A stretch of DNA of 64,000 nucleotides from a virus (taxonomy: Duplodnaviria > Heunggongvirae > Uroviricota > Caudoviricetes), in the IMG/VR virus record IMGVR_UViG_3300035182_001709. One strand, 5' to 3'. This document shows positions 1,961-62,405 of this stretch, piece by piece; positions within the stretch are counted from its first letter, which is position 1, and every line of letters starts with the position of its first letter. A model generated the notes under the pieces. It searched no databases. It worked only from the letters and a program-made list of their open reading frames with translations, and was not told where the DNA came from. The position numbers were made by a program, and so were the translations under genes.

Positions 1961-3319
1961 TCACTGGGCCATCTCCTTGGCGAGGTACGCCTCGCCCGCG
2001 GCTATCACCTTAGGATCCACGTCGCCGGGCGACCGAACGCGAATGTAGACTGGAAAGCGAACCTTGCCGTCGACAGTGAGCCCGTCCTTCGTCAGTGGGT
2101 CAGGTTGGCCTTCTACCTCAACGATCTTGCCCAACCAAGAGTCAGCCATCTCAAGCATGATCTCGGCACGCAGCTTGTCAGAGAAGCCCCCGCCCACGCG
2201 AGTGACCACGCCGTTGGGCAGCACCACGTTGAAGCCACCGAAAAGTCCCTCGCGTTTGGTACCGCGGCGACCCTCGTACCAGCCCACTACGACGCCCTCG
2301 AAGGTCGTCACGGGCTTCAGCTTCAGGATGTTCCGCGAGCGGTCCCACTCGTAGGTGGAATCGAGCGTCTTCAGCATGACACCCTCGTACCCCTCATTCA
2401 TGCACTTGGCGAAGAAGGCCTTGAGCTCAGCCTCGTCCTTGGCCATGATGTGGGGCACCTGGCGCACACAGCCGGTGTTGACCATTTCGACCACGGTGGC
2501 GACCAGCTCGCAGCGGTCTGAATAGATGACCGTCGTCTCTTGGTCGATCCAATCGTCGACTGCCATCGCGTCGAAGACGTTGTAGAATATGTTGCTGTCG
2601 TCCTTCTTGTTCTTGGACGACATCAGGACACTACTGGACTCGTTCCAGTCCTCGCCCATCGCCTCGCCGTCGAGGACGACGTTGTCGTATTCTGCGGCTT
2701 CCAACGCGGCCTTGATTCGCGGCAGGGTCTCGAGCTCGGTGCCATTGCGGGTGAAGAACGTGACCCTGCCGTCCTTCTTCACCGCGATGCAACGCAGACC
2801 GTCAAGCTTGGGCTCCACGCGTACGGGATATGCGATCTTCTCGAGGATCTTGATGCCCTCGCCTTTGACGAAGGTGCTCTTCACCGAAGACGCCAGGGCA
2901 ACGGCGAAGCTCTTGATGGTGCCAGGCCAGATCTTGTTGACCGTCGACTCCTGGACGCCGCAGCGCAGGTTCTTCAAGAGGATTCGAAGGCACCACTTCT
3001 GCTGGCGAGCGTCCATCAGCTGAAACGCCGCTGAGACCGTGAACTTGGCCTCGTTACCCGTCAACTTCCGCGACGATAGGTCGGGAAGGAGGACGTCGAG
3101 AAACGCCGTCAGCGTCTTGTCGTCGCCCACGGGGGCACTCGCCTGTGCCTGAGGCATCTTGAACTTGTTGACGTAGTAAACCATGTACGGGTCCTGGGCC
3201 GCTGCGAAGACGCGGCGGAGCAGCTCGTTGTCGCAGTTGCGCTTGAGGATGTCGCGCTTCGCGTTTGAACCCGCGGTGGTCTCGAGACTCTCCAGGATGT
3301 CGATGACGGTATCGCTCAT
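1961..3319 (-). CDS. ATP-dependent DNA ligase
   Basis: 452-aa ORF; adenylation motif I KxDG ('EPKLDGLRCIAVKKDG'); ligase-like OB/NTase architecture; TGA stop. Confidence 0.85.
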   Translation of the reverse strand: MSDTVIDILESLETTAGSNAKRDILKRNCDNELLRRVFAAAQDPYMVYYVNKFKMPQAQASAPVGDDKTLTAFLDVLLPDLSSRKLTGNEAKFTVSAAFQLMDARQQKWCLRILLKNLRCGVQESTVNKIWPGTIKSFAVALASSVKSTFVKGEGIKILEKIAYPVRVEPKLDGLRCIAVKKDGRVTFFTRNGTELETLPRIKAALEAAEYDNVVLDGEAMGEDWNESSSVLMSSKNKKDDSNIFYNVFDAMAVDDWIDQETTVIYSDRCELVATVVEMVNTGCVRQVPHIMAKDEAELKAFFAKCMNEGYEGVMLKTLDSTYEWDRSRNILKLKPVTTFEGVVVGWYEGRRGTKREGLFGGFNVVLPNGVVTRVGGGFSDKLRAEIMLEMADSWLGKIVEVEGQPDPLTKDGLTVDGKVRFPVYIRVRSPGDVDPKVIAAGEAYLAKEMAQ

Positions 3320-6578: not shown

Positions 6579-7381
<803 letters not shown>

Positions 7382-7382
<1 letters not shown>

Positions 7383-9985: not shown

Positions 9986-10249
9986 GCGCCCATCATACTA
10001 CGGAGACGGGCTGGTGTTCACTGGCTGGTCGACTGTCTTTTGTGAACAATATTCTTGCCGCAAAAGTCTTAGTTTGAGAGTGACAATTCTGAACGTACGT
10101 GTGATGTCGTGAATCCACAAGCACACTTGATAGAACAGAATCTACCCGATCCATACGACCCATCATGGGGATTCTGACACTTTTCACACAAACTCATGTT
10201 TTACGTGTTCGAACTTAGTTCGAAACACAACTCAGTTCAAGCGGTTTGG

Positions 10250-10321
10250 ATCAGGGAGTGGGATTCGAACCCACATTTTTTCCGTTCAAAGCGGAAGGTC
10301 CTGCCGTTAGACGACCCCTGA
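10250..10321 (-). tRNA. tRNA-Gln (anticodon UUG)
   Basis: T-loop GGTTCGAATCC on minus strand; cloverleaf folded by eye; anticodon loop CUUUGAA. Confidence 0.7.
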
Positions 10322-10413
10322 ATGATTCATGCTGCCTTGTCCTGCCTGGTATAGACGATCGATCAACGTGGCTGTAACCTACGTTCCAATTGTCCCGAAT
10401 ATTCTCGGGATGG

Positions 10414-10485
10414 CTGGGAGAGGTGGATTCGAACCACCGTGAGCAGAGTCAAAGTCTGCCATCCTTGCCGCTGAATGATCTCCCA
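10414..10485 (-). tRNA. tRNA-Gln (UUG), second copy
   Basis: cloverleaf; anticodon loop CUUUGAC. Confidence 0.65.
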
Positions 10486-10498
10486 ATGTTTACATTTA

Positions 10499-10574
10499 TG
10501 GCTGCCCGCCCAGGATTCGAACCTGGATTTTCTACGTTCAGAGCGTAGGGTCCTCCCATTTAGACGACCGGACA
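10499..10574 (-). tRNA. tRNA-Gln (CUG), CCA encoded
   Basis: anticodon loop CUCUGAA; one mismatch in acceptor stem. Confidence 0.6.
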
Positions 10575-10681
10575 ATAAGCGTCACCGTGGTCTGGATCGA
10601 ACAGACGTTGCGATAGCAGCCGCATTCGCTTTCGCGTGGTAAGATTCTGTGAACCTCACAACTTTCCTCAAACACGGTGAC

Positions 10682-10758
10682 TGGCAGGGGTGCTCGGATT
10701 CGAACCGAGACGAGCCGTTTTGGAGGCGGCCATGCTAGCCGTTGAACATCACACCCCT
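10682..10758 (-). tRNA. tRNA-Trp (CCA) probable; CCA encoded
   Basis: loop CUCCAAA with C31-A39 mismatch (alternative is a 9-nt loop). Confidence 0.5.
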
Positions 10759-10779
10759 GTGAACTGAGAAGACGTATCT

Positions 10780-10854
10780 TGGCACCGGCGAGGGGGATTC
10801 GAACCCCGTTTCCGGGTAGACAGCGCGGCGTCCTAGCCACTGAACGACGCCGGC
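10780..10854 (-). tRNA. tRNA, anticodon GUC read (Asp?), atypical loop CUGUCUA (U37)
   Basis: cloverleaf with 4/5 anticodon stem; CCA encoded. Confidence 0.45.
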
Positions 10855-10871
10855 ATGATGAATGAAGAACT

Positions 10872-10945
10872 TGGCGGAGACGACGGGATTCGAACCCGCG
10901 TACATTCCCTAGACAGGGGAGTGGCCTCCAGTGGCCCACGCCTCC
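10872..10945 (-). tRNA. tRNA, anticodon GUC read (Asp?), same atypical loop CUGUCUA
   Basis: cloverleaf; short D-loop. Confidence 0.45.
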
Positions 10946-11178
10946 AAGAAAACCCGATCACGCTGAGCTTCGCGTCGGGGTCATTAGTTCGTTCTCGCAT
11001 TCACCTTCCGAGTGTTTAGCCCGGCTCAGGCGGTTACATGCGCACCCCATCACAGCGTACCCGACGTGACAAATTCATTCAGCCTTCGTGAAATGATCAT
11101 CAATGCGGTGGTACACCACCGGTCAGATGTCCTGTTCAACCCGTGCCTATTCGAGCTTACCACGCTGTGAAGCGTCGG

Positions 11179-11251
11179 TGGAGCTGATGGGATTCGAACC
11201 CACGACCTCCTGCGTGCAAGGCAGGCGCTCTCCCAGTTGAGCTACAGCCCC
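11179..11251 (-). tRNA. tRNA-Ala (UGC)
   Basis: GGGGCUGUAGCUCA... G3-U70; loop CUUGCAC. Confidence 0.8.
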
Positions 11252-11389
11252 AAATGTTCTCGGGTGTCTTTGAAGATACTTCACCAATGATTAGATCGAG
11301 GGCCTTTTTATCGATCTACACCCAAGATTCGGCTTTCACCTGCAAAAGGCGCCCTCTGCCCAAACGGTTACTGGCTACGGTGGAGCTGA

Positions 11390-11462
11390 AGGGATTCGAA
11401 CCCTCTACCTCCTCGTTGCGAACGAGGCGCTCTCCCAACTGAGCTACAGCCCCATGAAATAG
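11390..11462 (-). tRNA. tRNA-Ala (CGC)
   Basis: G3-U70; loop UUCGCAA. Confidence 0.75.
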
Positions 11463-11533
11463 GATTTTTACGATGAACTTTGACCTGAGAGGCGTTTGTC
11501 CGGTGGCCGGGTCTGATCATCACTATTCCATCT

Positions 11534-11609
11534 TGGTGGAGCACAAGGGATTCGAACCCATCACCTCTTGCATGCCGTGCAAGCGCTCTTCCAACTGAGC
11601 TAGTGCCCC
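11534..11609 (-). tRNA. tRNA-Ala (GGC), CCA encoded
   Basis: GGGGCAC... loop ACGGCAU (C33). Confidence 0.65.
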
Positions 11610-11802
11610 GCGTGCCAACAGTTACTTTGCCCGCCTCATATATGATTTCAGAGGAACATTTCATTTCACCTATTGACTTGTCCGGATCTGCGTGCATTTT
11701 CTCTGTCTAATCCTGACAGGACTTTGTCGCAGCATCCTCAGTAGTTCGGTCGCTATTGGCTTAGCGGCCTAGCAACAGGATAATCCCCGTGAGGGGGAAG
11801 TT

Positions 11803-12561
11803 TCACTTCTTGCGTCTCTCCGTGATCGTGTTGATCTTACCGCCACCACGAACGTTCGACATGCCAAGATCAATCAGGACCAGCGTCCCATCGTCACGGG
11901 TCATCATATTGCCCGCATGGTAGTCGTGAAAGTCGATGCCGAGTTCCGTCAGCGTGTTGAACATGTCGCGGAGACCGTACTTGGTGACCAGCGCATTCCA
12001 CTTGCTGTTGATGTCCTTGACGAACTCTTGAGCCTCTGGCGAGTTCAGGTTGCCGCCGTACTTCTTCTTGACTTGAGAGACGATAAACTCCTTCGTCAAC
12101 TTCTTGGCATTGTCCCAAGAGCCCTCGGCTCGCTTGATCCAGATTGGTAGACCCGTGGCAACAAGAGCGTTATTGAAGGCCTTGGCCTCGTCCTTCGGAA
12201 GCGGTTGCAACTTTTCCTGCAGGATTCCGAAAAATCCCGTGTCGCCAAAGCGCCACACCGCGTAGAAGTGAACGACGTTCTTGATGTCCTTACCTACCAG
12301 CGCCGAGGCTGCCTCAGCCTCCTTGTCGTCATTGGTCACCTTCAGGACCTTGCCCCCGCCGATGTCCAAGGCGGTTCCACGCGTTCCCGTTCCGAGAACA
12401 GGCAGTGAATCGATCTTGTTGACGTTGAGACCCAACTTGGCCATGCCCTTTGGGAACTTCTTCAACAGTTCCTTGGACTTATCAGCATCGATCGCCTCAC
12501 CTTCGCGGATGAGGATCTCGAGCAGCGTCCTAAGCCTACCTACCGTGATGACGATTGCCAT
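11803..12561 (-). CDS. protein kinase-like protein (Gly-rich loop LGTGTRGTALDIGGGKVLKV, catalytic HDYHAGNMM, DLG) carrying the N-terminal leader motif (MAIVITVGRLRTLLEILIRE)
   Basis: 252-aa ORF; kinase subdomain motifs by eye. Confidence 0.6.
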   Translation of the reverse strand: MAIVITVGRLRTLLEILIREGEAIDADKSKELLKKFPKGMAKLGLNVNKIDSLPVLGTGTRGTALDIGGGKVLKVTNDDKEAEAASALVGKDIKNVVHFYAVWRFGDTGFFGILQEKLQPLPKDEAKAFNNALVATGLPIWIKRAEGSWDNAKKLTKEFIVSQVKKKYGGNLNSPEAQEFVKDINSKWNALVTKYGLRDMFNTLTELGIDFHDYHAGNMMTRDDGTLVLIDLGMSNVRGGGKINTITERRKK

Positions 12562-12664
12562 GCAATAGGTTATTCGTTTTGGTGTGCCTGGAGGGATTTA
12601 AGCCGAACGTCTCTGGATTATGGGCCCCAGCGGGAACCGTCCCTCCTCCGGGTCAATCTAATAC

Positions 12665-12739
12665 TGGTAGCGGGAGACGGAATCGAACCGCCGACCTCTA
12701 GGTTATGAGCCTAGCAAGCTACCGCTGCTCTATCCCGCT
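12665..12739 (-). tRNA. tRNA-Met (CAU) elongator-type (or Ile2)
   Basis: anticodon arm CUAGG-CUCAUAA-CCUAG; A1-U72 paired; CCA encoded. Confidence 0.7.
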
Positions 12740-12753
12740 ATGATCTATCTAGG

Positions 12754-12825
12754 TGGGTCCGGAGGTAATCGAAACCCCACGCGCCAGTTTAAAAGACTGG
12801 TCTCTTCCACTTGAGTTACGGACCC
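12754..12825 (-). tRNA. tRNA-Lys (UUU)
   Basis: loop CUUUUAA. Confidence 0.75.
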
Positions 12826-12842
12826 AATATCACACCTTTCAC

Positions 12843-12912
12843 CTGCTACCCCCGGATTCGAACCGAGGTCTTGCAGGTTCAAAGCCTGCTGTGCTACCAT
12901 CACACTCGCATT
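12843..12912 (-). pseudogene. tRNA-like fragment or pseudo-tRNA (T-arm plus Gln-like anticodon arm, no D-arm or acceptor pairing found)
   Basis: GGTTCGAATCC T-loop and hairpin GCAGG-CUUUGAA-CCUGC, but no complementary 5' acceptor strand. Confidence 0.3.
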
Positions 12913-12928
12913 TGGTTACTTGCTGTGA

Positions 12929-13004
12929 CTGGTGCGCGAGGGTGGAGTTGAACCACCGACCCCCAAGGATAATCCTTGGTGCTCTTCTGCCTGAGCTACT
13001 CGCA
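12929..13004 (-). tRNA. tRNA with canonical 76-nt cloverleaf whose anticodon loop GAUUAUC places UUA at positions 34-36 (suppressor-like or undetermined; A33, U37)
   Basis: perfect arms, CCA encoded; loop lacks U33. Confidence 0.5.
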
Positions 13005-13005
13005 C

Positions 13006-13081
13006 ATGGTGGGGAGGGCAGGACTTGAACCTACGACCCCCGGCTTATTCTGCCGGCGCTCTTTCACTGAGCTACCTCCCC
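13006..13081 (-). tRNA. tRNA with anticodon loop AGAAUAA (AAU at 34-36; Ile-like or undetermined), CCA encoded
   Basis: perfect cloverleaf; G33; 1-nt spacer to next tRNA. Confidence 0.45.
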
Positions 13082-13128
13082 GTGACCGTCACTGTACCCT
13101 GTCCGCTAGAACGTGTACACTGACTTAG

Positions 13129-13203
13129 TGCGTCTGGTGGGATTCGAACCCACGACCTTCTAGGTAAGAACTAGTTGCTCTGGTTCCACTGAGCTACAAG
13201 CGC
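13129..13203 (-). tRNA. tRNA-Lys (CUU)
   Basis: loop UUCUUAC; one acceptor mismatch. Confidence 0.55.
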
Positions 13204-13264
13204 ATGAATGATCGAACCTCACCTTCGACTTCATGTGTCGTGTTGAGTGGTTACTATTCGATCG

Positions 13265-13340
13265 GTCGGTCCGGCGGGATTCGAACCCGCACCTGTCTCC
13301 TTAAGAGGGAGCTATGCAATACCAGTAACACCTCGGACCG
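13265..13340 (-). tRNA. tRNA-Lys (CUU) probable second copy; atypical (A8, 10-nt D-loop)
   Basis: loop CUCUUAA. Confidence 0.45.
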
Positions 13341-13453
13341 AGGTTGCGACGGAAGTTCTGCTGAGAGTTTGGCCGTCGCTCCGTGGGCTCTCATGTCTGC
13401 GCCATCGCAAGGCTACCGCTCCCACGATTACGGAGTCTGCGGTTTGTCTTGCT

Positions 13454-13540
13454 GACGGCTGGCTCACAGGGCAGGATTCGAACCCGCGTTAGGCTTTCAC
13501 CGTTACGGGTTAACAGCCCGCTGCCTGGCCACTAGGCTAC
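13454..13540 (-). tRNA. tRNA with long variable arm (type II-like), anticodon loop CUGUUAA (GUU); CCA encoded
   Basis: 87 nt; canonical T-arm and acceptor. Confidence 0.45.
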
Positions 13541-13564
13541 CTGTGAATGATGATCCCAAAGGAT

Positions 13565-13653
13565 CTGGCTGCGTCGGAAGGAGTCGAACCCTCATCCCCT
13601 CGATTAACAGTCGAGTGCACTGCCTCTCCGGCTTTACGGTTGTGCTACGACGC
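13565..13653 (-). tRNA. tRNA-like, anticodon arm CUCGA-CUGUUAA-UCGAG (GUU) with oversized D region; CCA encoded
   Basis: 89 nt; good acceptor and T arms. Confidence 0.4.
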
Positions 13654-13654
13654 A

Positions 13655-13728
13655 ATGGCTCCGGCACAAGGATTCGAACCTCGATGATCTAGTAAACAGC
13701 TAGACGTCCTCCCGTTGAACGATACCGG
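13655..13728 (-). tRNA. tRNA, anticodon GUU read (Asn?), loop CUGUUUA; CCA encoded
   Basis: canonical cloverleaf; 1-nt spacer from previous tRNA. Confidence 0.55.
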
Positions 13729-13731
13729 AAT

Positions 13732-13806
13732 GTGGCCCCCGAGGACGGATTCGATACCGTCATATCCGACCTAAGGCGGCCGGCGCTCGAGCTTGAGCTA
13801 CTCAGG
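13732..13806 (-). tRNA. tRNA-like with irregular anticodon arm (6-bp stem, 6-nt loop GCCUUA) and 8-nt T-loop; possible pseudo-tRNA
   Basis: acceptor and D arms fine; CCA encoded. Confidence 0.35.
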
Positions 13807-13855
13807 GATTTGGAACGTAGATTGTCAGAGAACAAGGAAAGGCATGCACCTTGCC

Positions 13856-13945
13856 TGGTGTAGCGGGTGGGATTCGAACCCACAATGTTCACCACATTGG
13901 GACCCGGGTTACAGCCGGGCGAGCACACCGTTGCTCAACCGCTAC
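13856..13945 (-). tRNA. tRNA-Tyr (GUA), long variable arm, CCA encoded
   Basis: arm CCCGG-CUGUAAC-CCGGG; variable-arm hairpin CAAUG/CAUUG. Confidence 0.7.
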
Positions 13946-13971
13946 ATACAGTCGATCATCGAGATGATCGG

Positions 13972-14053
13972 TGGAGTGCCTAGGAGTCGAACCTAGTTGT
14001 GCACAGCAAACTGATTTACAGTCAGCCCCCGAGCCCTACGGGACTAGCACTCC
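13972..14053 (-). tRNA. tRNA-Tyr (GUA), second copy
   Basis: loop CUGUAAA; long variable arm. Confidence 0.6.
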
Positions 14054-14272
14054 ATTTGGAGGACCCACTGCTGTCGACCACCGGTTCAGTTTCGATTTTG
14101 GCTTCTTCCTGCCATCATCTCAGCTGCCCCGGAAGCGGACGGGGCAGCGAGGCCCCCATCACACTTGCGTATTGGCATACGCGGTGGCATTATCTTGCCA
14201 CTGCTTCTGCTGATACTGCTTGTTGACGTTCGTTTTCATGACAGTTTCTTCTTCGTACGACCCTTACGGGCT

Positions 14273-14349
14273 TGGTCGACCGGGGGAGAGTCGAACTCCC
14301 GACAACACGTGTATCAGACGTGTGCTCTAACCGACTGAGCTACCGGTCG
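14273..14349 (-). tRNA. tRNA-Ile (GAU), CCA encoded
   Basis: arm CACGU-CUGAUAC-ACGUG. Confidence 0.75.
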
Positions 14350-22199: not shown

Positions 22200-22694
22200 T
22201 CAGGGAGAGGTCAGGTGCCGCGAACGAACGTACAACCTTTGTTGCGCCCTGGCGCCGTTGCGGTACTGTTGCAGGTCTTCCATCATGACGGAAAACATCT
22301 CGACTGTGCAGTCGTTGTCCTCGAGGGCGCGCTGAAAGGCCTCGGCGACCTCACCGTCCTCAAAGATGCCGATGATCCCATCGAATGCGCCCTCGATGGC
22401 GTCCTTTGCCTCCTTCAGGCCGCAACCCGTGTACTCACGGATGATCTTGATGGAAGCGATCTTCTTTGCAGGGTCGAAGTTCGTCAGCCTGACGATACAC
22501 GGGGTCTGGCCCAGGTTGAACATCCGCGAGATGGCCATGCCGGTGAACTTGAACCACTCGGCGATTTTGATAAGCTCCACGTCATCGGCGAAGGTGATCC
22601 AACGTCCGTCTTCTTCTGAGCCGACTGAAAACGAAATGCGCAGGCGTGTGGAACGTGGGCGGTGCTCGCCCGACTGCAGGTCATTGTCGTTCAT
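22200..22694 (-). CDS. protein with ribosomal bL12 (L7/L12) C-terminal-domain-like region
   Basis: 'ASIKIIREYTGCGLKEAKDAIEGA...FEDG..EVAEAFQRALEDNDCTVE' aligns by eye to the bL12 CTD. Confidence 0.5.
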   Translation of the reverse strand: MNDNDLQSGEHRPRSTRLRISFSVGSEEDGRWITFADDVELIKIAEWFKFTGMAISRMFNLGQTPCIVRLTNFDPAKKIASIKIIREYTGCGLKEAKDAIEGAFDGIIGIFEDGEVAEAFQRALEDNDCTVEMFSVMMEDLQQYRNGARAQQRLYVRSRHLTSP

Positions 22695-23282
22695 TTCAAA
22701 ATAATACCTCAGGTTGATGTCAATATTCACTGCAGCGCGTCTCAGTGACCAACACAGCATCTCGTGTATAAAGATGAGTTCCATGGGGAACCATCTTTGA
22801 GCTTCTCTTGCAACTTAATGCCGCTAAGCGCGATGGGGCCGATGGCGATGCATTATGCCTCATCTTCGTACTCACCGAAGCCCTCTAGGTCATAGAGGCC
22901 GTCGTTGCCATTGATGCGTTTGCCCTTAACATCAAATGGATGTAGGACGAAAGTGCAGATGGACGCGGCGCAGGTAGAGTACAACAGGCCTGAACATACG
23001 AATTTATCACCGCGCAGTTAGGTGACCAATCAATCGACTTTTCGACTAATTTCCGAGGGTCTCTCACGAGGGTTGGCGCCATGGGATGCATGGGCTTGCC
23101 CTTATAGGTGTACAAGACCCTAAGCGCGTCAATACGGACCGGTCATCCACGTGAATAGCTCAACTGAGCCTTTCACTGCGAATACGTCTCTCATCGGGCA
23201 GGCCAGTGAGTGAGCGCAGTCCTTGATGATTCCATGAAACCCGCGTGCCCACCATCATATCACCGCGCGAGATGGTGAACTT

Positions 23283-39337: not shown

Positions 39338-40102
39338 ATGGCGAGCATGAACCTCAACGTCGGAATCAAGGGCCTGAAGCAGGGCACCAACATCATGGAT
39401 GTTGAGGTGCCTGAGAAGCTGAAGCAGCGCATCAAGACCGGCATCACCTGGTTCGATGACGCGGTTGGTGGCCAGGGTTTCGTGCCCAGCTCCGTCATGA
39501 TGCTGACCGGTACGCCTGGCGCCGGCAAGACCACGATGCTGCTGCAGCTGGCGGACGCCATCACCGGGCAGGGGAACATCTGCCTCTACAACACCGGCGA
39601 GGAGTCGCTCTACCAGGTGCGCATGGTGACCGAGCGCCTGAAGTTGAAGCACGGCTTCATCTGTGGCCAGGACATCATGGTGCCCGACCTGCTGAAGCAC
39701 GCGGACGCGCTGCGCAAGGCCAACCCGAAGAAGCAGGTCTTCATTCTGCAGGACTCGCTGCAGACCCTGGACGACGGCAAGTACTCCAACGGTACCAATG
39801 GCGCCACGCCGCTGCGCTGCGTCGAGATGCTGACCGACTGGGCGAAGAGCACCTACGGCATCGTCATCTTCATCGGACAGGTCAACAAGAGCGGCGAATT
39901 CGCCGGCAAGAACGGGATCCTCCACGCGATCGACGTCCGCGGGTCGCTCTACATCGACCAGGAGAAGAACAGCGAGACCTACGGGGAGCGCATCTTCGAG
40001 GTCACCAAGAACCGCTTCGGTTGCTCGGGCCGCGCCTACGTCCTCGGCTTCCAGGAGAAGGGGCTCTTCGAGAAGGGCAGCTTCGGCATGAACGAGCGCT
40101 GA
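39338..40102 (+). CDS. RecA-superfamily ATPase (Sak4/RadA/KaiC-like recombination protein)
   Basis: Walker A TGTPGAGKTT; 254 aa. Confidence 0.65.
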   Translation: MASMNLNVGIKGLKQGTNIMDVEVPEKLKQRIKTGITWFDDAVGGQGFVPSSVMMLTGTPGAGKTTMLLQLADAITGQGNICLYNTGEESLYQVRMVTERLKLKHGFICGQDIMVPDLLKHADALRKANPKKQVFILQDSLQTLDDGKYSNGTNGATPLRCVEMLTDWAKSTYGIVIFIGQVNKSGEFAGKNGILHAIDVRGSLYIDQEKNSETYGERIFEVTKNRFGCSGRAYVLGFQEKGLFEKGSFGMNER

Positions 40103-40194
40103 ACCCGCGATCTGGGGGCGCAATTCTCGGGAGAGACGGGGGCACGGGTCCTTAGGGACCCAAGCTCACGCGGCCAACGGGAGACCAATAGCGC

Positions 40195-40232
40195 CGAACC
40201 CGGTTCGATTCCGGGGCGCTCCACGAGAGACG
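40195..40232 (+). ncRNA. tRNA-like minihelix (acceptor stem stacked on T-arm, CCA encoded) with no D or anticodon arms
   Basis: AGCGCC-GAA-CCCGG-TTCGATT-CCGGG-GCGCT-CCA. Confidence 0.35.
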
Positions 40233-40514
40233 GATATACTGACAAGGGCAACACCACGTGCCGGGAGGTAAAGGAACAACTAGTCGAAGTCGTCAGTTGA
40301 CAGATGCCTTGACAAGACTGGATCTACGTAGCATTGCAAGAACCTGCCAGATCAAGTCAAAAGAGGTCGTTTCTCTCTTTCAATGACGATGTTAGCTCGT
40401 GATTCTTCTCCTTTGCGGGAGAAATGTCAGCCAACATCTACGTTCTATAAGTTGACCGTAGATCTCGTAAGACAGATGCATGTTTAACAATGACAGGGAG
40501 AGGAAGAGAAAGTC

Positions 40515-40552
40515 TCTGCTCCCCGGTCAACCCCATCTCAACACCGGGGTTT
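40515..40552 (+). terminator. rho-independent terminator candidate (CCCCGGT...ACCGGGG TTTTT)
   Basis: 7-bp GC stem, U5 tract. Confidence 0.45.
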
Positions 40553-40900
40553 TTACGGCTTCTTAGCCTGAGACTTGCGGAGGCGTTCCGCCTTCTCCTT
40601 GTCCTTCTTTTCTTTTTCCTCGGCACGCTCGTCTGAGGTCTTGACGGTGTGCAGGGACTTCTCATCATCGAGATAGTAATAGAGGGTACGCTTGGCAACG
40701 CCCAGCTCGCTGGCTGCCTTGGCAGCATCGCCCCCGTGACCGTTTACGGCGGCGCGGACCCTGTTGCGGAACTTCTCAGGGTTGAGCTGGCGCACTGCCC
40801 CGATGTCGGTGCGCGGCCCGCCGGGCTTGGCGTGGCGCTTCTTCTCGTCGAGGAGATCCAACGTCTCCTTGATGAACTCCTTCAACAGTGCTGCACTCAT
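40553..40900 (-). CDS. Fis/NtrC-C-terminal-type HTH DNA-binding protein
   Basis: 'AAKAASELGVAKRTLYYYL'; start at internal MSAALLKEF. Confidence 0.5.
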   Translation of the reverse strand: MSAALLKEFIKETLDLLDEKKRHAKPGGPRTDIGAVRQLNPEKFRNRVRAAVNGHGGDAAKAASELGVAKRTLYYYLDDEKSLHTVKTSDERAEEKEKKDKEKAERLRKSQAKKP

Positions 40901-41134: not shown

Positions 41135-41800
41135 ATGGGCAAGAAGGCAACCGCAGATAAGTCTCCTGAGCTGGTCCCCACGAGCCTCACGGGACCCGCG
41201 GAAGATAACCCTGGCATCACGTCGGAGCTGCAGGCACCCCCGGGACTCTCGGACGAGGACCTGGAGCTGCAGGCTGCGCTGACCGATCCCATGGCTGCGC
41301 AGGCGGCCCGTGATGCTCGCAAGCCCGATATCACGTGGCTGGAAGACGCAGTGGTCGAGGCCGAGGGCATGAAGGTCCCCCTCTTCAACGTGGGCGACCG
41401 GATCGTCATCGAGCGCTACTGCCGCATGCTGCAGGGGTCCCCGTGGCTCGATACGCAGACCTACGAAGTCCAGTCCATCGACGATGAGACGGGCGATCTC
41501 CGCCTGTGGAACCCGGATCTCAAGCAGTTCGCCATGTCCAACTTCATCAAGGGCCCCGCGAGGGGCGACGTCTTCAAGCTGGCCCCCGCCAAGGGCAGCA
41601 TCGGCAAGAAGAAGCGTGGCCGCCCGCGGAAGCACCCTCTTGGTGCTCCCAAGCCCGAGGTCAAGCCCGGTGAGAAGCGTGGCCGGGGTCGCCCGAAGGG
41701 CAGCAAGAACCGGCCCAAGGACGTCATCAAGGCCGAGAAGGCTCGCCTGCAGCAGGAGCGCCAGGCCAGGGCCTCGCGGAAGCGCCGGGTGAAGAAGTGA
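41135..41800 (+). CDS. AT-hook DNA-binding protein (KRGRPRK, RGRGRPKGSK)
   Basis: 221 aa; cassette 41095..41134. Confidence 0.55.
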   Translation: MGKKATADKSPELVPTSLTGPAEDNPGITSELQAPPGLSDEDLELQAALTDPMAAQAARDARKPDITWLEDAVVEAEGMKVPLFNVGDRIVIERYCRMLQGSPWLDTQTYEVQSIDDETGDLRLWNPDLKQFAMSNFIKGPARGDVFKLAPAKGSIGKKKRGRPRKHPLGAPKPEVKPGEKRGRGRPKGSKNRPKDVIKAEKARLQQERQARASRKRRVKK

Positions 41801-60417: not shown

Positions 60418-60801
60418 TCAATGATCGTCTGCGGGCATGCGTTGCTTGAACGTCGTCACCATCTCCATTGTGTCCTTGACGGCCCGATCGTGCAACAGCT
60501 TGGAACCCGAGCTCGCCAGCGCTGTGATTGCTGACATAAACAACTGCAGGCCCGCGGTGCAGACCAGGATAGTACCCGCGGCCACGTGGAATAGCGCTAG
60601 GACCAGCGCCAAGACCATGGTGAAGACCAGCATGGAAACTCGGCTGTTGCTGGCGCTAGCTGCGGTCACCCAGGCCATCGCTGCCTTCTCGAGGACGATC
60701 ATCTGCAACGTGAAGTTGATCTTCTGCTTGTCGCTGACCGTCTCCCAATCAACGTTTTCCAGCTTCTTCGCGAGTTGTTCCTTGGCCTCTTCCACCTTCA
60801 T
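60418..60801 (-). CDS. small membrane protein (2 TM helices)
   Basis: ORF. Confidence 0.5.
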   Translation of the reverse strand: MKVEEAKEQLAKKLENVDWETVSDKQKINFTLQMIVLEKAAMAWVTAASASNSRVSMLVFTMVLALVLALFHVAAGTILVCTAGLQLFMSAITALASSGSKLLHDRAVKDTMEMVTTFKQRMPADDH

Positions 60802-62405
60802 TCCTTCTTCTCCTCTTCCTCGACCACAACCGCATCGAGCGACAGGAACGTCACCGCGACGGAGACGGCGTTCTTCAGGGCGGTGCGAGTCACCTTGACG
60901 GGATCCACGACGCCAGCGGCGATTAGGTCCTCGTAGGTCTCCTTAGCTGCGTTGTAGCCCAGGGTGACGTCATTGAGGTGCAACTTGTGCAGCTCATTGA
61001 TGACCACGTCGGGAGAGACGCCCGCGTTGGTGACGATGCGCCGCAGGGGCGCAACACATGCAGCCTGCACCACCTTGGCACCGGCGCCGAACGTGGAGAC
61101 TGGAATCTGCTGGCTCGCAGCCGCCAGTGCCATGCCGCCGCCGGGAACGATGCCCTCTTCTGCGGCAGCCTTCGTGGCATTGAGAGCGTCTTCAATGCGG
61201 TACTTGCGTTCCACCATCTCGACTTCCGTCGCGCCACCGACGCGGATGATGGCGACGCCGCTCGCCAACTTGGCGATTCGCATCTTCAGCTTGGTGACCT
61301 CATCCTGCGTCTTGGTGACGTCTTCCACCTGCGATCGCAGGTTGGCCACGTGAGCGTCGACCTCGGGCTTCGTGGTACCGGTGCCGACCAGCGTCGTGGA
61401 CTTGGCGTCGACCGTGACACGCTTGATGGTGCCGAGGTCAGCCAACGTCAGTGTCTCGAGCTTCAATCCCTGCGATGCAGAGACGAGCTTTGCGCCCGTC
61501 AGGGTGGCGATGTCCTGCAGTAGCTCGTCGCGGTGCTGCCCATAGCCCGGTGCCTTAACGGCCACAATCGGCAGGTTGCCCTGGACACGGTTGAGAACCA
61601 GGCCGTGCAGCGCCTCACCTTCCACGTCTTCTGCGATGATCAGCAGTGGCGTCCGCGTCTGGAGAACCTTCTCTAGGATTGGCACTAGGTCCTTCAACAC
61701 GCTGATCTTCTTGTCAGTGACCAGGACTCGGGCGCCCTCGTAGGTCGCCAACATCCTGTCGGGATTGGTGACGAAGTACGGCGATAGGTAGCCGCGGTCG
61801 AACTGCATACCTTCGACGACGTCGAGGCTGGTCGTCATGCCTTTGGCGTCCTCAACAGTGATAATACCGTCCTTACCGACCTTGCTCATGGCCTGAGCGA
61901 TCAGTTGCCCGATTTTCTCGTCACCGTTCGCGGAGATAGTGCCAACCTGGGCGATCTCTTCCGCCGTCGTTAGCTGCTTCGCAGCGCGGATCAGCTCCTC
62001 ATCGACAGTGGCCCGTGCCAGCTCGATGCCTTCACATAGTTCCTTCGCCGAGAAGCCAGCCTCCAGCAGTTTCAGGCCTTCCCTGACCATGGCGTGGGTC
62101 AACACCGTTGCTGTTGTCGTGCCGTCACCGGCGACCTCGTTGGTCTGCGATGCGGCCTCCCGGATCAGCTCTGCGCCCATCCTCGCGATGGGGTCCTTCA
62201 GCTTGACAGACTTGGAGACCGTGACGCCATCCTTGGTGACAACCGGCGCCTCGCCCTTGCGCTGGATCAGTACCGTTTTGCCCTTCGGGCCCAGCGTGCA
62301 GCTGACGGCCTCCGCGGCGATCTCGAGACCGTTGTAAAGCTTACGGCGGGCCTCGTCCTTGAAAACAACCTTGGTGACTGCGGGAGTGTCGACGTCTTGA
62401 AACAT
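60798..62405 (-). CDS. groEL: chaperonin GroEL (Cpn60)
   Basis: 535 aa; 'AGDGTTTATVL', 'GGG' C-terminal region; TGA stop. Confidence 0.85.
   Translation of the reverse strand: MFQDVDTPAVTKVVFKDEARRKLYNGLEIAAEAVSCTLGPKGKTVLIQRKGEAPVVTKDGVTVSKSVKLKDPIARMGAELIREAASQTNEVAGDGTTTATVLTHAMVREGLKLLEAGFSAKELCEGIELARATVDEELIRAAKQLTTAEEIAQVGTISANGDEKIGQLIAQAMSKVGKDGIITVEDAKGMTTSLDVVEGMQFDRGYLSPYFVTNPDRMLATYEGARVLVTDKKISVLKDLVPILEKVLQTRTPLLIIAEDVEGEALHGLVLNRVQGNLPIVAVKAPGYGQHRDELLQDIATLTGAKLVSASQGLKLETLTLADLGTIKRVTVDAKSTTLVGTGTTKPEVDAHVANLRSQVEDVTKTQDEVTKLKMRIAKLASGVAIIRVGGATEVEMVERKYRIEDALNATKAAAEEGIVPGGGMALAAASQQIPVSTFGAGAKVVQAACVAPLRRIVTNAGVSPDVVINELHKLHLNDVTLGYNAAKETYEDLIAAGVVDPVKVTRTALKNAVSVAVTFLSLDAVVVEEEEKKE

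Follow-up and report, generated by a model that had tools for sequence, protein, structure and literature searches.

What is encoded downstream of a RecA-like gene in a tailed phage, in 450 nt where no sizable open reading frame (ORF) is found? The window analyzed here is a 64,000-nt stretch of a Caudoviricetes virus (IMG/VR record IMGVR_UViG_3300035182_001709), in which a gene for a RecA/RadA/KaiC-like ATPase (39338–40102, plus strand; Pfam PF06745, E=3.5e-11) is followed by a segment, 40103–40552, whose ORFs are all ≤42 aa. The original prediction described this segment as an AT-rich, ORF-free island carrying a free tRNA-like minihelix, sigma-70-like promoters and an intrinsic terminator, and proposed either a small-RNA locus or a degraded tRNA. 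Homologs and fold support a tRNA-related RNA locus here. The lack of larger ORFs holds for the whole segment and the low GC content for 40233–40552; the first 120 nt are a GC-rich RNA gene.

A tRNA-shaped RNA gene follows the RecA-like gene

The stretch from 40103 to 40223 has a GC content of 0.62–0.68 and contains a tRNA-shaped RNA gene of 109 nt on the plus strand (40115–40223, from G1 to the discriminator A73), which starts 12 nt past the RecA-like stop codon. The whole element folds with −54.5 kcal/mol (z −3.5), and none of 200 shuffled sequences folds as well. The fold is a five-helix cloverleaf comprising an acceptor stem, a D-like hairpin, a long central arm, an extra arm and a T-arm. 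The acceptor stem can be read directly from the sequence: its 5′ strand GGGGCGC (40115–40121) pairs with 40216–40222 and includes G3·U70, and its 3′ strand GCGCUCC is followed by A73 (40216–40223), so that the alanine identity set (G3·U70 with A73) is present. The letters that follow are CGA, and CCA is thus not encoded. The D-like hairpin UCUC-GGGA-GAGA (40125–40136) has a 4-nt loop with a conserved GG. At the position of the anticodon arm lies a central arm of 34 nt (40137–40170) with a base helix CGGGGGC/GCUCACG that contains a purine·purine mismatch, a 2x2 internal loop and an apical hairpin GGGUCC-UUAG-GGACCC with a loop of 4 nt. It is followed by an extra ("variable") arm (40171–40196) with a base helix CGGC/GCCG and an 18-nt lineage-specific apex, and by a canonical T-arm, CCCGG-UUCGAUU-CCGGG (40199–40215). 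Features of the tRNA elbow are present as well, namely G53, U54-U55-C56, R57, A58 and C61 in the T-arm and the GG in the D-loop.

This fold replaces the predicted minihelix, of which the T-arm had been read correctly. The two strands proposed to form a 6-bp acceptor-like stem around it, AGCGCC and GCGCT, do exist (40190–40195 and 40216–40220), in a motif that spans 40190–40223 rather than 40195–40232. However, this stem reuses G40215 of the T-stem and therefore competes with it, and the minihelix folded alone reaches −15.6 kcal/mol (z −1.6), a value equaled or bettered by 17 of 200 shuffles. For half of its six-base 5′ strand (A40190–C40192), alignment A5 shows no equivalent position in the homologs. 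AGCGCC belongs to the extra arm and not to an acceptor strand, and the terminal "CCA" corresponds to C71-C72-A73 of the 7-bp acceptor stem formed with 40115–40121.

The element is conserved in three phage lineages

Two further phage lineages carry homologs of the element at this locus, one represented by L145 and L146, the other by L170, L171 and L001. In the window, L145, L170, L171 and L001 alike, the element follows the RecA-like gene on that gene's strand; in L145 it begins 5 nt past a small ORF, and L145, L170 and L001 share a gene order in which it stands between the RecA-like gene and a homolog of window positions 41135–41800. The homolog of the L170 group is 82 nt long. CCA is encoded in L145, where the sequence continues with ACCA, and L171 continues with ACC.

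The three lineages support the same structure. When drawn by hand on alignment A4, 95% of cells are paired, compared with 32–59% when the partners are slid, and six pairs in four of the five helices are changed on both sides while remaining paired. RNAalifold returns the same cloverleaf, with 23 pairs of which 6 are compensatory, on an input alignment fitted to our model, which makes it a check that is not fully independent; the covariation comes from only three independent lineages and its statistics are thin. Acceptor pairs 1–5 are invariant and pairs 6–7 covary (G-C/C-G versus A-U/A-U), while two pairs of the T-stem are changed on both sides between lineages. The D-like hairpin keeps three invariant pairs, with the fourth broken in the L170 group, and its loop reads NGGA in all lineages (GGGA or AGGA). 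The central arm has a conserved base helix, in which one pair is compensatory (G-C to U-A), beneath a variable apex, giving arms of 21, 34 (window) and 53 nt in the three lineages. Similarly, the extra arm keeps its base helix, with G-C, G-U and C-G at the same pairs, below an apex of 5 nt in L145 and L170 versus 18 nt in the window. Divergence is thus restricted to the tips of two arms, and all three lineages keep G3·U70 and A73 unchanged.

The core of the element changes much more slowly than neutral positions nearby. Between the window and L145 it is 92% identical, against 58% for four-fold degenerate sites in the neighboring gene; the corresponding values for L170 are 72% and 41%. Together with the compensatory changes, this argues for continued function of the long forms (window and L145), and the comparison indicates that the element is under purifying selection in two related groups of giant phages. 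It is nonetheless dispensable, since it is missing from the close relatives L137–L144, whose RecA-like protein is 83–92% identical to that of the window or L145.

The family is small in the collections searched. A covariance model, R1, built partly from the trimmed window element, scores that element at 79.1 bits and any other site in the window at ≤37.5 bits, its best match outside the family being the phage's own class II tRNA-Tyr. Among loci with relatives of the RecA-like gene, those from IMG/VR (L001–L008) and those from an exact-protein look-up (P0002, P0004, P0005, P0006, P0008, P0009, P0010 and P0012) mostly lack the element. Near and distant DNA searches of a phage collection found no relative of the locus; the sole DNA matches there, 31–34 nt long, align the T-arm and acceptor strand with the 3′ ends of M. 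abscessus prophage tmRNAs. In a collection of 185,579 species genomes, the exact 3′ 22-mer has no match, and a D-arm 19-mer matches only coding sequence, which we read as probably of the RecN/SMC Walker-A type. Four further IMG/VR pattern scans for the family returned L001's contig only, plus one tmRNA-internal look-alike in L172, and a broader scan (GGGG...T-arm...CTCCA) yielded many unrelated tRNA-like or TLD-only (tRNA-like domain only) genes among which R1 recognizes no new member.

The AT-rich island is a separate insertion

GC content drops to 0.44–0.51 over 40200–40500, compared with about 0.62–0.66 in the flanks. The AT-rich spacer (40233–40552, unstranded), to which no function is assigned, forms an insertion together with an ORF of 115 aa on the minus strand (40553–40900) that converges on it and weakly matches a Fis-type helix-turn-helix (HTH) domain (PF02954, E=0.0027, below the curated cut-off). 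The exact HTH protein is present on 9 contigs and has no relatives in IMG/VR. The island itself is 100% identical in four contigs of the same strain (five loci, one contig contributing two), does not occur in L145, L170 or L001, and has no similar sequence among the fetched loci or in the phage collection; its structure signal is weak (z-scores −1.7 and −2.2). Judged from these comparisons, it is a separate insertion specific to the window's lineage. The small ORFs (≤42 aa) within it are unsupported. We also considered a sequence after the element, GGATATACT, as a repeated phage promoter motif, for which there is no enrichment in the window, and a 10-nt repeat flanking the island and the HTH gene, TAGTCGAAGT, which occurs at about chance level.

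The motifs read as promoters and as a terminator exist, with qualifications. Two TTGACA boxes (40297–40302 and 40309–40314) and a TAGCAT (40329–40334) lie on the plus strand (40297–40334), separated by spacers of 26 and 14 nt, outside the 16–18 nt of a sigma-70-type promoter; a promoter scan found no plus-strand site in 40233–40552, and by these measures the boxes do not make a credible sigma-70 promoter. The terminator-like hairpin (40521–40554, plus strand) consists of a 7-bp GC-rich stem, CCCCGGT/ACCGGGG (40521–40527/40543–40549), and five T residues (40550–40554), with −11.7 kcal/mol and z −2.2. Its loop of 15 nt is longer than typical, and the terminator scan missed it because it accepts loops of 3–8 nt. 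The hairpin sits between convergent transcription units, with its T-run overlapping the stop codon of the minus-strand HTH ORF, and is not conserved outside the strain. It is real but unremarkable. A small-RNA locus with sigma-70 promoters in the AT-rich part is unsupported, given the lack of homologs, the weak structure signal and the wrong promoter spacing.

The element differs from known tRNAs and tmRNAs

Standard tRNA and tmRNA finders miss the element in the window. At default settings ARAGORN overlooks it both here and in L145, and at lowered thresholds it proposes only a spurious alternative in the window. None of the forms is matched at E≤10 by the Rfam models for tRNA (RF00005) and tRNA-Sec. 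ARAGORN does call the 82-nt form of L170 and L001 a tRNA-Leu(taa), with two mismatches in the anticodon stem, yet the Rfam tRNA model rejects the L170 form. The tmRNA model RF00023 likewise fails to match the forms of the window, L145 and L170 at E≤10, while its positive controls score 43.2 bits (DS6A), 65.1 (L117), 56.9 (L035) and 42 (L100); the T-arm and 3′ acceptor strand alone give partial matches of 10–15 bits to permuted-tmRNA models. A permuted or two-piece tmRNA was rejected, as there is no downstream 5′ acceptor strand of the form GG[AG]G[CT]G[CT], no tag-like ORF and no hit in ARAGORN's tmRNA mode. A tRNA with a short intron was rejected too, for removing the apical hairpin leaves a tetraloop and no anticodon loop.

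The element is reminiscent of the TLD-only ("no CDS") tmRNA that, as cited in PMC4131195 and PMC11915505, was described in mycobacteriophage DS6A (Mao et al. 2009), and short forms resembling it occur in the IMG/VR contigs L117, L035 and L100. Both are phage-encoded RNAs of ~80–130 nt without a tag reading frame, with a GGGGC... acceptor carrying G3·U70, A73, a canonical T-arm with UUCGA, a GG in the D-region and a capped helix where the anticodon arm would be; both are presumably alanine-accepting and non-decoding. In contrast to tmRNA, the family described here forms a genuine D-stem closed by a 4-nt loop and carries one more stem-loop ahead of the T-arm; its T-stem is preceded by "AA" or "U" in place of "GGAC", and P2a-type pairing of 5′ and 3′ halves is missing. 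Since it has a D-stem and an extra arm and lacks the "GGAC", binding of SmpB is unsupported.

A second comparison is with class II tRNAs and with allo-tRNAs, which are tRNA-Sec-like molecules carrying G3:U70 (Mukai et al. 2017, reviewed in PMC7609411) and which, according to PMC7609411, have a 12-bp acceptor domain arranged as 8/4 or 9/3 and a functional anticodon loop. These RNAs share with our family a five-helix cloverleaf with a long extra arm, a stem of 6–7 bp at the anticodon-arm position and an alanine identity independent of the anticodon; the short 4-nt D-loop with GG recalls tRNA-Sec. The acceptor and T helices of this family, both supported by covariation, are 7/5 rather than 8/4 or 9/3. 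A conserved 7-nt anticodon loop is lacking, in a central arm of 21 to 53 nt, as is the conserved A14, and U8 is found in the L170 group only. A third parallel is offered by jakobid mitochondrial and plastid tmRNAs whose mRNA-like region is reported to be lost (Jacob et al. 2004; PMC11915505): in both cases an alanine-type tRNA-like module without a tag is retained by selection. Those RNAs are organellar, mostly permuted and recognized by dedicated tmRNA models, whereas this family is phage-borne, not permuted and equipped with extra arms.

Alternative explanations for the element

The element might act only in cis, as tRNA-like "punctuation" whose cleavage by RNase P or RNase Z defines and stabilizes the 3′ end of the RecA-like mRNA, the freed RNA being functionless. 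Its constant position just downstream of that gene on the same strand would fit, as would the failure of the promoter scan to find a promoter of its own. RNase P requires the acceptor/T-arm shape and not G3·U70 with A73. The invariance of pairs 1–5 and A73 while pairs 6–7 covary therefore speaks against this reading; moreover, conservation extends to the base helices of the central and extra arms, which mere cleavage does not need, and close relatives do without the element. We consider this explanation unlikely.

We think it rather improbable that the element is a non-canonical decoding class II tRNA with a long extra arm, be it a tRNA(UAA) in the L170 group or a suppressor with a UUA loop in the window. 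A decoding ancestor or role is possible in the L170 group given the tRNA-Leu(taa) call; the best outside match of R1, at 37.5 bits, is a class II tRNA; and the apical loop in the window reads CC-UUA-GG in a phage that also carries a "tRNA-Stop(tta)". On the other hand, the central arms of 21, 34 and 53 nt, with a 4-nt loop in the window, do not keep the distance from anticodon to acceptor end, the Rfam models reject every form, default ARAGORN passes over the two long ones, and G3·U70 would lead to charging with alanine regardless of the anticodon.

A decaying tRNA or tmRNA pseudogene without present function is improbable. It would account for the rejection by tRNA finders, for insertions of differing length at the anticodon-arm position, for the other tRNA or tRNA-like genes that relatives carry at this site (intact in L008, degenerate in L178), for the resemblance of the 3′ end to mycobacteriophage tmRNA 3′ ends and for the similarity of the 5′ 23 nt to the PK4 region (a pseudoknot) in a phage tmRNA, with 20 of the 23 positions matching. 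However, a pseudogene would not be expected to hold its core so far above neutral identity, to compensate six pairs, to retain the mutationally fragile G·U at 3:70 in every lineage or to diverge only at the tips of two arms. The degraded tRNA of the original prediction is thus at odds with the long forms. That prediction had taken an intact tRNA at this site in relatives as a sign of simple decay, and the 82-nt homolog answers it in part, being called a tRNA by ARAGORN but with the stem mismatches and Rfam rejection noted above.

It is very doubtful that a free minihelix accompanies an independent small RNA transcribed from the island, with the boxes as promoter and the hairpin as end: the motifs exist, the hairpin and U5 could terminate a plus-strand transcript and the island is identical in the same-strain contigs, but the lower minihelix stem lacks conservation in addition to competing with the T-stem, the promoter spacing is wrong without a scan hit, and the island is missing from the other lineages, without similar DNA elsewhere and with little sign of structure. 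That the element serves integration as an attachment site copied from the 3′ portion of a host tRNA or tmRNA gene is hardly credible, for although its 3′ 34 nt resemble tmRNA 3′ ends (88–90% identity) and tmRNA genes are common integration sites (PMC11915505), its 5′ half pairs and covaries with the 3′ half, which integration does not need, its exact 3′ 22-mer is found in none of the species genomes (the host possibly not being among those sampled), no integrase is seen among 27 window proteins scanned against Pfam (a minority of the ORFs), and the genome is of the jumbo-phage type, with contigs of 0.2–1 Mb.

A putative alanine-accepting tRNA mimic

We favor, at about even confidence, the reading that the element encodes a non-decoding, alanine-accepting tRNA mimic that would work like the tRNA-like domain of tmRNA. 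With central arms of 21, 34 and 53 nt and no anticodon loop at a fixed distance, decoding appears impossible. AlaRS reads the acceptor stem only. Its major determinant is G3·U70 (Hou and Schimmel 1988, as cited in PMC7609411), the pair kept in every lineage. The RNA would be cotranscribed with the upstream RecA-like gene, released by RNase P and 3′ trimming, completed with CCA (encoded in L145, and needing to be added to the window form) and charged with alanine by the host alanyl-tRNA synthetase. It would then most likely serve as a decoy or hijacker that engages partners of alanyl-tRNA or of tmRNA (SmpB, EF-Tu, AlaRS), the weakest step in the chain. Such a decoy could alter ribosome rescue during infection, an effect reported for a molecule like the TLD-only tmRNA of DS6A; according to PMC4131195 and PMC11915505, this molecule strongly inhibits tmRNA in E. 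coli.

The genomic setting is that of a phage that invests in translation, as seen from 21 tRNAs in the window (ARAGORN, default) and an encoded protein with an L7/L12 domain; tmRNA, SmpB and L7/L12 are known in huge phages (PMC7162821). More tentatively, we suggest that the element may belong to an undescribed family of alanine-accepting tRNA mimics of giant (>200 kb) phages, neither tRNA nor tmRNA, defined by a 7/5 cloverleaf in which the D-loop has 4 nt, the rod-like central arm is free to vary in length and an extra arm is present, and that it might tamper with host translation quality control or serve as a dedicated alanyl donor in a non-ribosomal reaction.

Although giant phages are rich in translation genes, their noncoding RNAs are annotated only by tRNA and tmRNA finders, both of which overlook this element. 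If the proposal is correct, it would represent a second route, by a different structure, to the effect that the DS6A-type TLD-only tmRNA seems to have, and would offer a testable handle on phage interference with ribosome rescue or on diverted aminoacyl-tRNA chemistry, in a small system consisting of a 109-nt RNA with three natural variants for comparison. The locus also shows that tRNA-like genes with remodeled anticodon arms can remain under selection instead of being pseudogenes.

A tRNA-shaped RNA gene downstream of the RecA-like gene

The region following the RecA/RadA/KaiC-like ATPase gene (39338-40102, + strand) contains a conserved 109-nt alanine-type, non-decoding tRNA mimic (40115-40223, + strand). 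The sequence GCGCTCC (40216-40222), which follows the T-arm, pairs over its full length with GGGGCGC (40115-40121), some 95 nt to its 5' side, with G·U as the third pair, and A40223, directly 3' of the acceptor 3' strand, takes the place of the discriminator A73. The acceptor stem thus has 7 bp and carries G3·U70, which together with A73 is the identity set for alanyl-tRNA synthetase (AlaRS) and is common to tRNA-Ala and tmRNA. The predicted fold is a cloverleaf of five helices (-54.5 kcal/mol, z -3.5, 0/200 shuffles as good): besides the acceptor stem there are a D-like hairpin (UCUC-GGGA-GAGA), a central arm of 34 nt with a UUAG tetraloop at its tip, an extra arm of 26 nt and a canonical T-arm. 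Neither ARAGORN (default settings) nor Rfam reports the window element.

An exact 9-nt direct repeat, GAGAGACGG, lies in the 3' strand of the D-like hairpin (40131-40139) and in the 3' trailer just past A73 (40225-40233), where it could compete for the UCUC strand of the hairpin. The trailer CGAGAG is common to the window element and the prophiGD54-2 tmRNA gene.

The original prediction had described a CCA-ended tRNA-like minihelix, sigma-70-like promoters and an intrinsic terminator in an AT-rich segment. All the motifs listed are present at slightly shifted coordinates. Overall, the observation is confirmed in part and its interpretation is supported in part. The minihelix motif spans 40190-40223, but as a free structure it folds no better than shuffled sequence (z -1.6); its lower stem must borrow the last G of the T-stem, and the "CCA" end is actually C71-C72-A73 of the acceptor stem and discriminator. 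Low GC content (0.44-0.51) is confined to about 40200-40500; the segment opens with 120 nt of GC-rich sequence.

The element is conserved in three phage lineages

Four same-strain contigs (five loci) add no information because they are 100% identical across the whole region. Synteny alone is insufficient for finding homologs: most relatives with a RecA-like protein 72-88% identical to that of the window are without the element. A pattern scan of metagenome contigs, requiring the same acceptor stem and T-loop 70-100 nt apart, recovered a homolog at L145:4628-4742 (Ga0315277_10035235), downstream of a RecA-like gene 88.6% identical to that of the window. A structure-aware rescan of the fetched loci added a shorter form of 82-83 nt in L170, L171 and L001, again downstream of a RecA-like gene (78-79% identical). 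The gene order in these contigs is RecA-like gene, element and a homolog of window 41135-41800; only the window has an AT-rich island and a helix-turn-helix (HTH) gene between the last two.

All three lineages share the acceptor stem and T-arm, a D-like hairpin with loop NGGA, the base of the extra arm and a central-arm base CNGGGGC/...C.G whose third layer is a purine·purine mismatch. The lineages differ at the tips of the central arm (21, 34 or 53 nt in total) and of the extra arm (apex of 5 or 18 nt). With the hand-drawn structure, 95% of the cells of the core alignment are standard pairs, vs 32-59% when partners are slid by 1-3 columns. Six pairs, two each in the acceptor and T-stem and one each in the central and extra arms, have changed on both sides with pairing kept, and the covariation score of the core alignment was equalled by 0/500 shuffles. 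R1, a covariance model built from this alignment and structure with the trimmed window element included, gave 79 bits for the untrimmed window sequence and 87 bits for L145. RNAalifold returned the same cloverleaf (23 pairs, 6 compensatory) from a full alignment that was itself fitted to R1 and so leans toward the drawn structure. Core identity to the window is 92% for L145 and 72% for L170; four-fold degenerate sites in the neighbouring RecA-like gene give 58% and 41% in these two comparisons. Stems and junctions that are conserved, tips that vary freely and a G·U pair that is kept argue for a functional RNA rather than a decaying pseudogene, with the caveat that no more than three independent lineages are known. 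We consider it highly probable that the element is a real, selected structured RNA gene.

Other relatives suggest that tRNA-type genes have a hotspot just after the RecA-like gene. At L008:3850-3925 this gene is directly followed by an intact tRNA whose anticodon is UUU, and at L178:1100-1175 by a degenerate tRNA-like sequence that ends in GCCA and is rejected by ARAGORN. Directly 3' of the element, L170 (3548-3580) and L001 (1561-1593) carry a 29-nt hairpin-forming insert with CTCCAC direct repeats at both sides, absent at L171:2010. On the 5' side of the element are tandem CACCCGAT repeats, four in L170 and three in L171. In the relatives with the RecA-like protein closest to that of L145 (92.5%), at L137-L139:2501-3499, a stop codon changed from TAA to TTA lets the RecA-like ORF run on for a further 78 codons, to 332 aa; these relatives lack the tRNA-like element.

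The AT-rich island

The other two lineages lack the island (40233-40552). We found nothing similar to it in the fetched loci or in the phage collection, no convincing ORF within it and only a weak structure signal (z -1.7 and -2.2). The proposed promoter boxes exist (TTGACA at 40297-40302 and 40309-40314, TAGCAT at 40329-40334), but spacers of 26 and 14 nt defeat the promoter idea, and a consensus promoter scan reports no site on the island + strand. The hairpin at 40521-40549 is reasonably stable (-11.7 kcal/mol, z -2.2), but its loop is 15 nt long, and the U-run that follows (T5, 40550-40554) extends into the stop codon of the convergent ORF. A hairpin of this kind, placed between two transcription units, is an unremarkable terminator candidate. 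We treat the island as spacer DNA that arrived with the HTH gene, with a terminator-like hairpin at its end.

Genomic setting

The window comes from the genome of a giant phage. The exact RecA-like protein adjoining the element was found on metagenomic contigs of 0.2-1 Mb and its IMG/VR relatives on viral contigs of up to 298 kb; a search of the GenBank phage collection found no close relative. The flagged segment lies between the RecA-like gene and a convergent ORF of 115 aa (40553-40900, - strand) that weakly matches a Fis-type HTH. The window also encodes an ATP-dependent DNA ligase (1961-3319), a sigma-70 factor (6579-7382), a 194-aa protein with a ribosomal L7/L12 C-terminal domain (22200-22784, - strand; PF00542, E=1.5e-10), an 859-aa Major-Vault-Protein-like protein (44546-47125, + strand; shoulder PF11978, E=3e-28, with vault repeat and SPFH/Band 7 domains) and GroEL (60798-62405). 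Genes for tmRNA, SmpB and L7/L12 are known from huge phages (PMC7162821).

An array of 21 tRNA genes (10247-14349, - strand) includes a "tRNA-Stop" with anticodon tta (12930-13005), a tRNA-Ile(aat), a 68-nt tRNA-Gln and a second tRNA-Tyr whose D-loop, by eye, looks unusually short (4 nt). Inside the array lies a 252-aa ORF (11803-12561) with no Pfam match.

Relation to tRNAs and tmRNAs

RF00023, the tmRNA family as currently modelled, can be rejected: it gives nothing for the element family and 43 bits for the known tmRNA of mycobacteriophage DS6A, which consists of the tRNA-like domain (TLD) only. Partial matches of 10-15 bits to permuted-tmRNA models cover only the T-arm and 3' acceptor strand. 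Nor does the element have the form of a decoding tRNA: the arm at the anticodon position varies more than two-fold in length and is tipped by a tetraloop in the window. The Rfam tRNA and tRNA-Sec models match no form at E<=10; ARAGORN does read the L170 short form as tRNA-Leu(taa), but only if two mismatches are allowed in a 5-bp stem, where our alignment instead has a 6-bp stem and a 9-nt loop. An attachment site is rejected, as the 5' half of the element covaries with its 3' half; the exact 3' 22-mer had 0 occurrences in 185,579 species genomes.

Outside the family R1 gave weak matches throughout, with 37.5 bits for the class II tRNA-Tyr of the phage itself, 33 bits for the 3' portion of the phage tmRNA in L172, 27 bits for the DS6A TLD and 25 bits for tRNA-Ala. 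The family therefore falls between class II tRNAs and tmRNA TLDs, a member of neither, and the element is a variant of the kind that TLD-only phage tmRNAs and non-canonical class II tRNAs both represent.

The L172 gene (11381-11758, IMG/VR_UViG_3300009111_000005) encodes a complete phage tmRNA whose tag is ANDNVGKPLGFAPVALAA. The PK4 pseudoknot region of this tmRNA (11675-11697, GGGGCGUUAUUCUCUGGAGAGAC) matches the 5' 23 nt of the window element at 20/23 positions; the search pattern left 9 of the 23 positions free, and 6 of those 9 agree. The family may have arisen from a tmRNA 3' part, or the likeness may be chance. Three IMG/VR loci carry short tmRNA genes (80-132 nt) that consist of the TLD only, without a tag frame: L117:2135-2214, L035:5115-5246 and L100:7357-7446, scoring 65, 57 and 42 bits with RF00023. 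To our knowledge DS6A is the single published phage case, and TLD-only tmRNAs thus appear to recur in uncultured phages.

A possible role in ribosome rescue

The canonical T-loop and the GG of the D-loop are predicted to form a tRNA elbow. The element would be co-transcribed with the RecA-like gene: it starts 12 nt past the end of that ORF, and we found no separate promoter for it. By analogy with tRNA maturation, RNase P and 3' trimming would release the RNA. The 3' CCA is encoded in L145 (ACCA), partly in L171 (ACC) and not in the window (ACGA), where it would have to be added. AlaRS needs the acceptor helix only, and established tRNA biology suggests that it would charge the RNA; on balance, we think that the element is alanylated.

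An alanylated RNA might alternatively serve a non-ribosomal transferase as alanyl donor; DNA modification by phage Mu Mom uses Gly-tRNA (PMC13219725), but we found nothing pointing to such a use here. For the tRNA mimic a role in ribosome rescue is a tentative proposal, drawn by analogy: the DS6A TLD-only gene is a precedent, and a similar molecule reportedly inhibits tmRNA strongly in E. coli, perhaps by titrating SmpB (PMC4131195, PMC11915505). Alanylated or uncharged, the RNA might act as a tmRNA TLD without the mRNA part, and by competing for SmpB, EF-Tu or AlaRS it might damp or redirect ribosome rescue.
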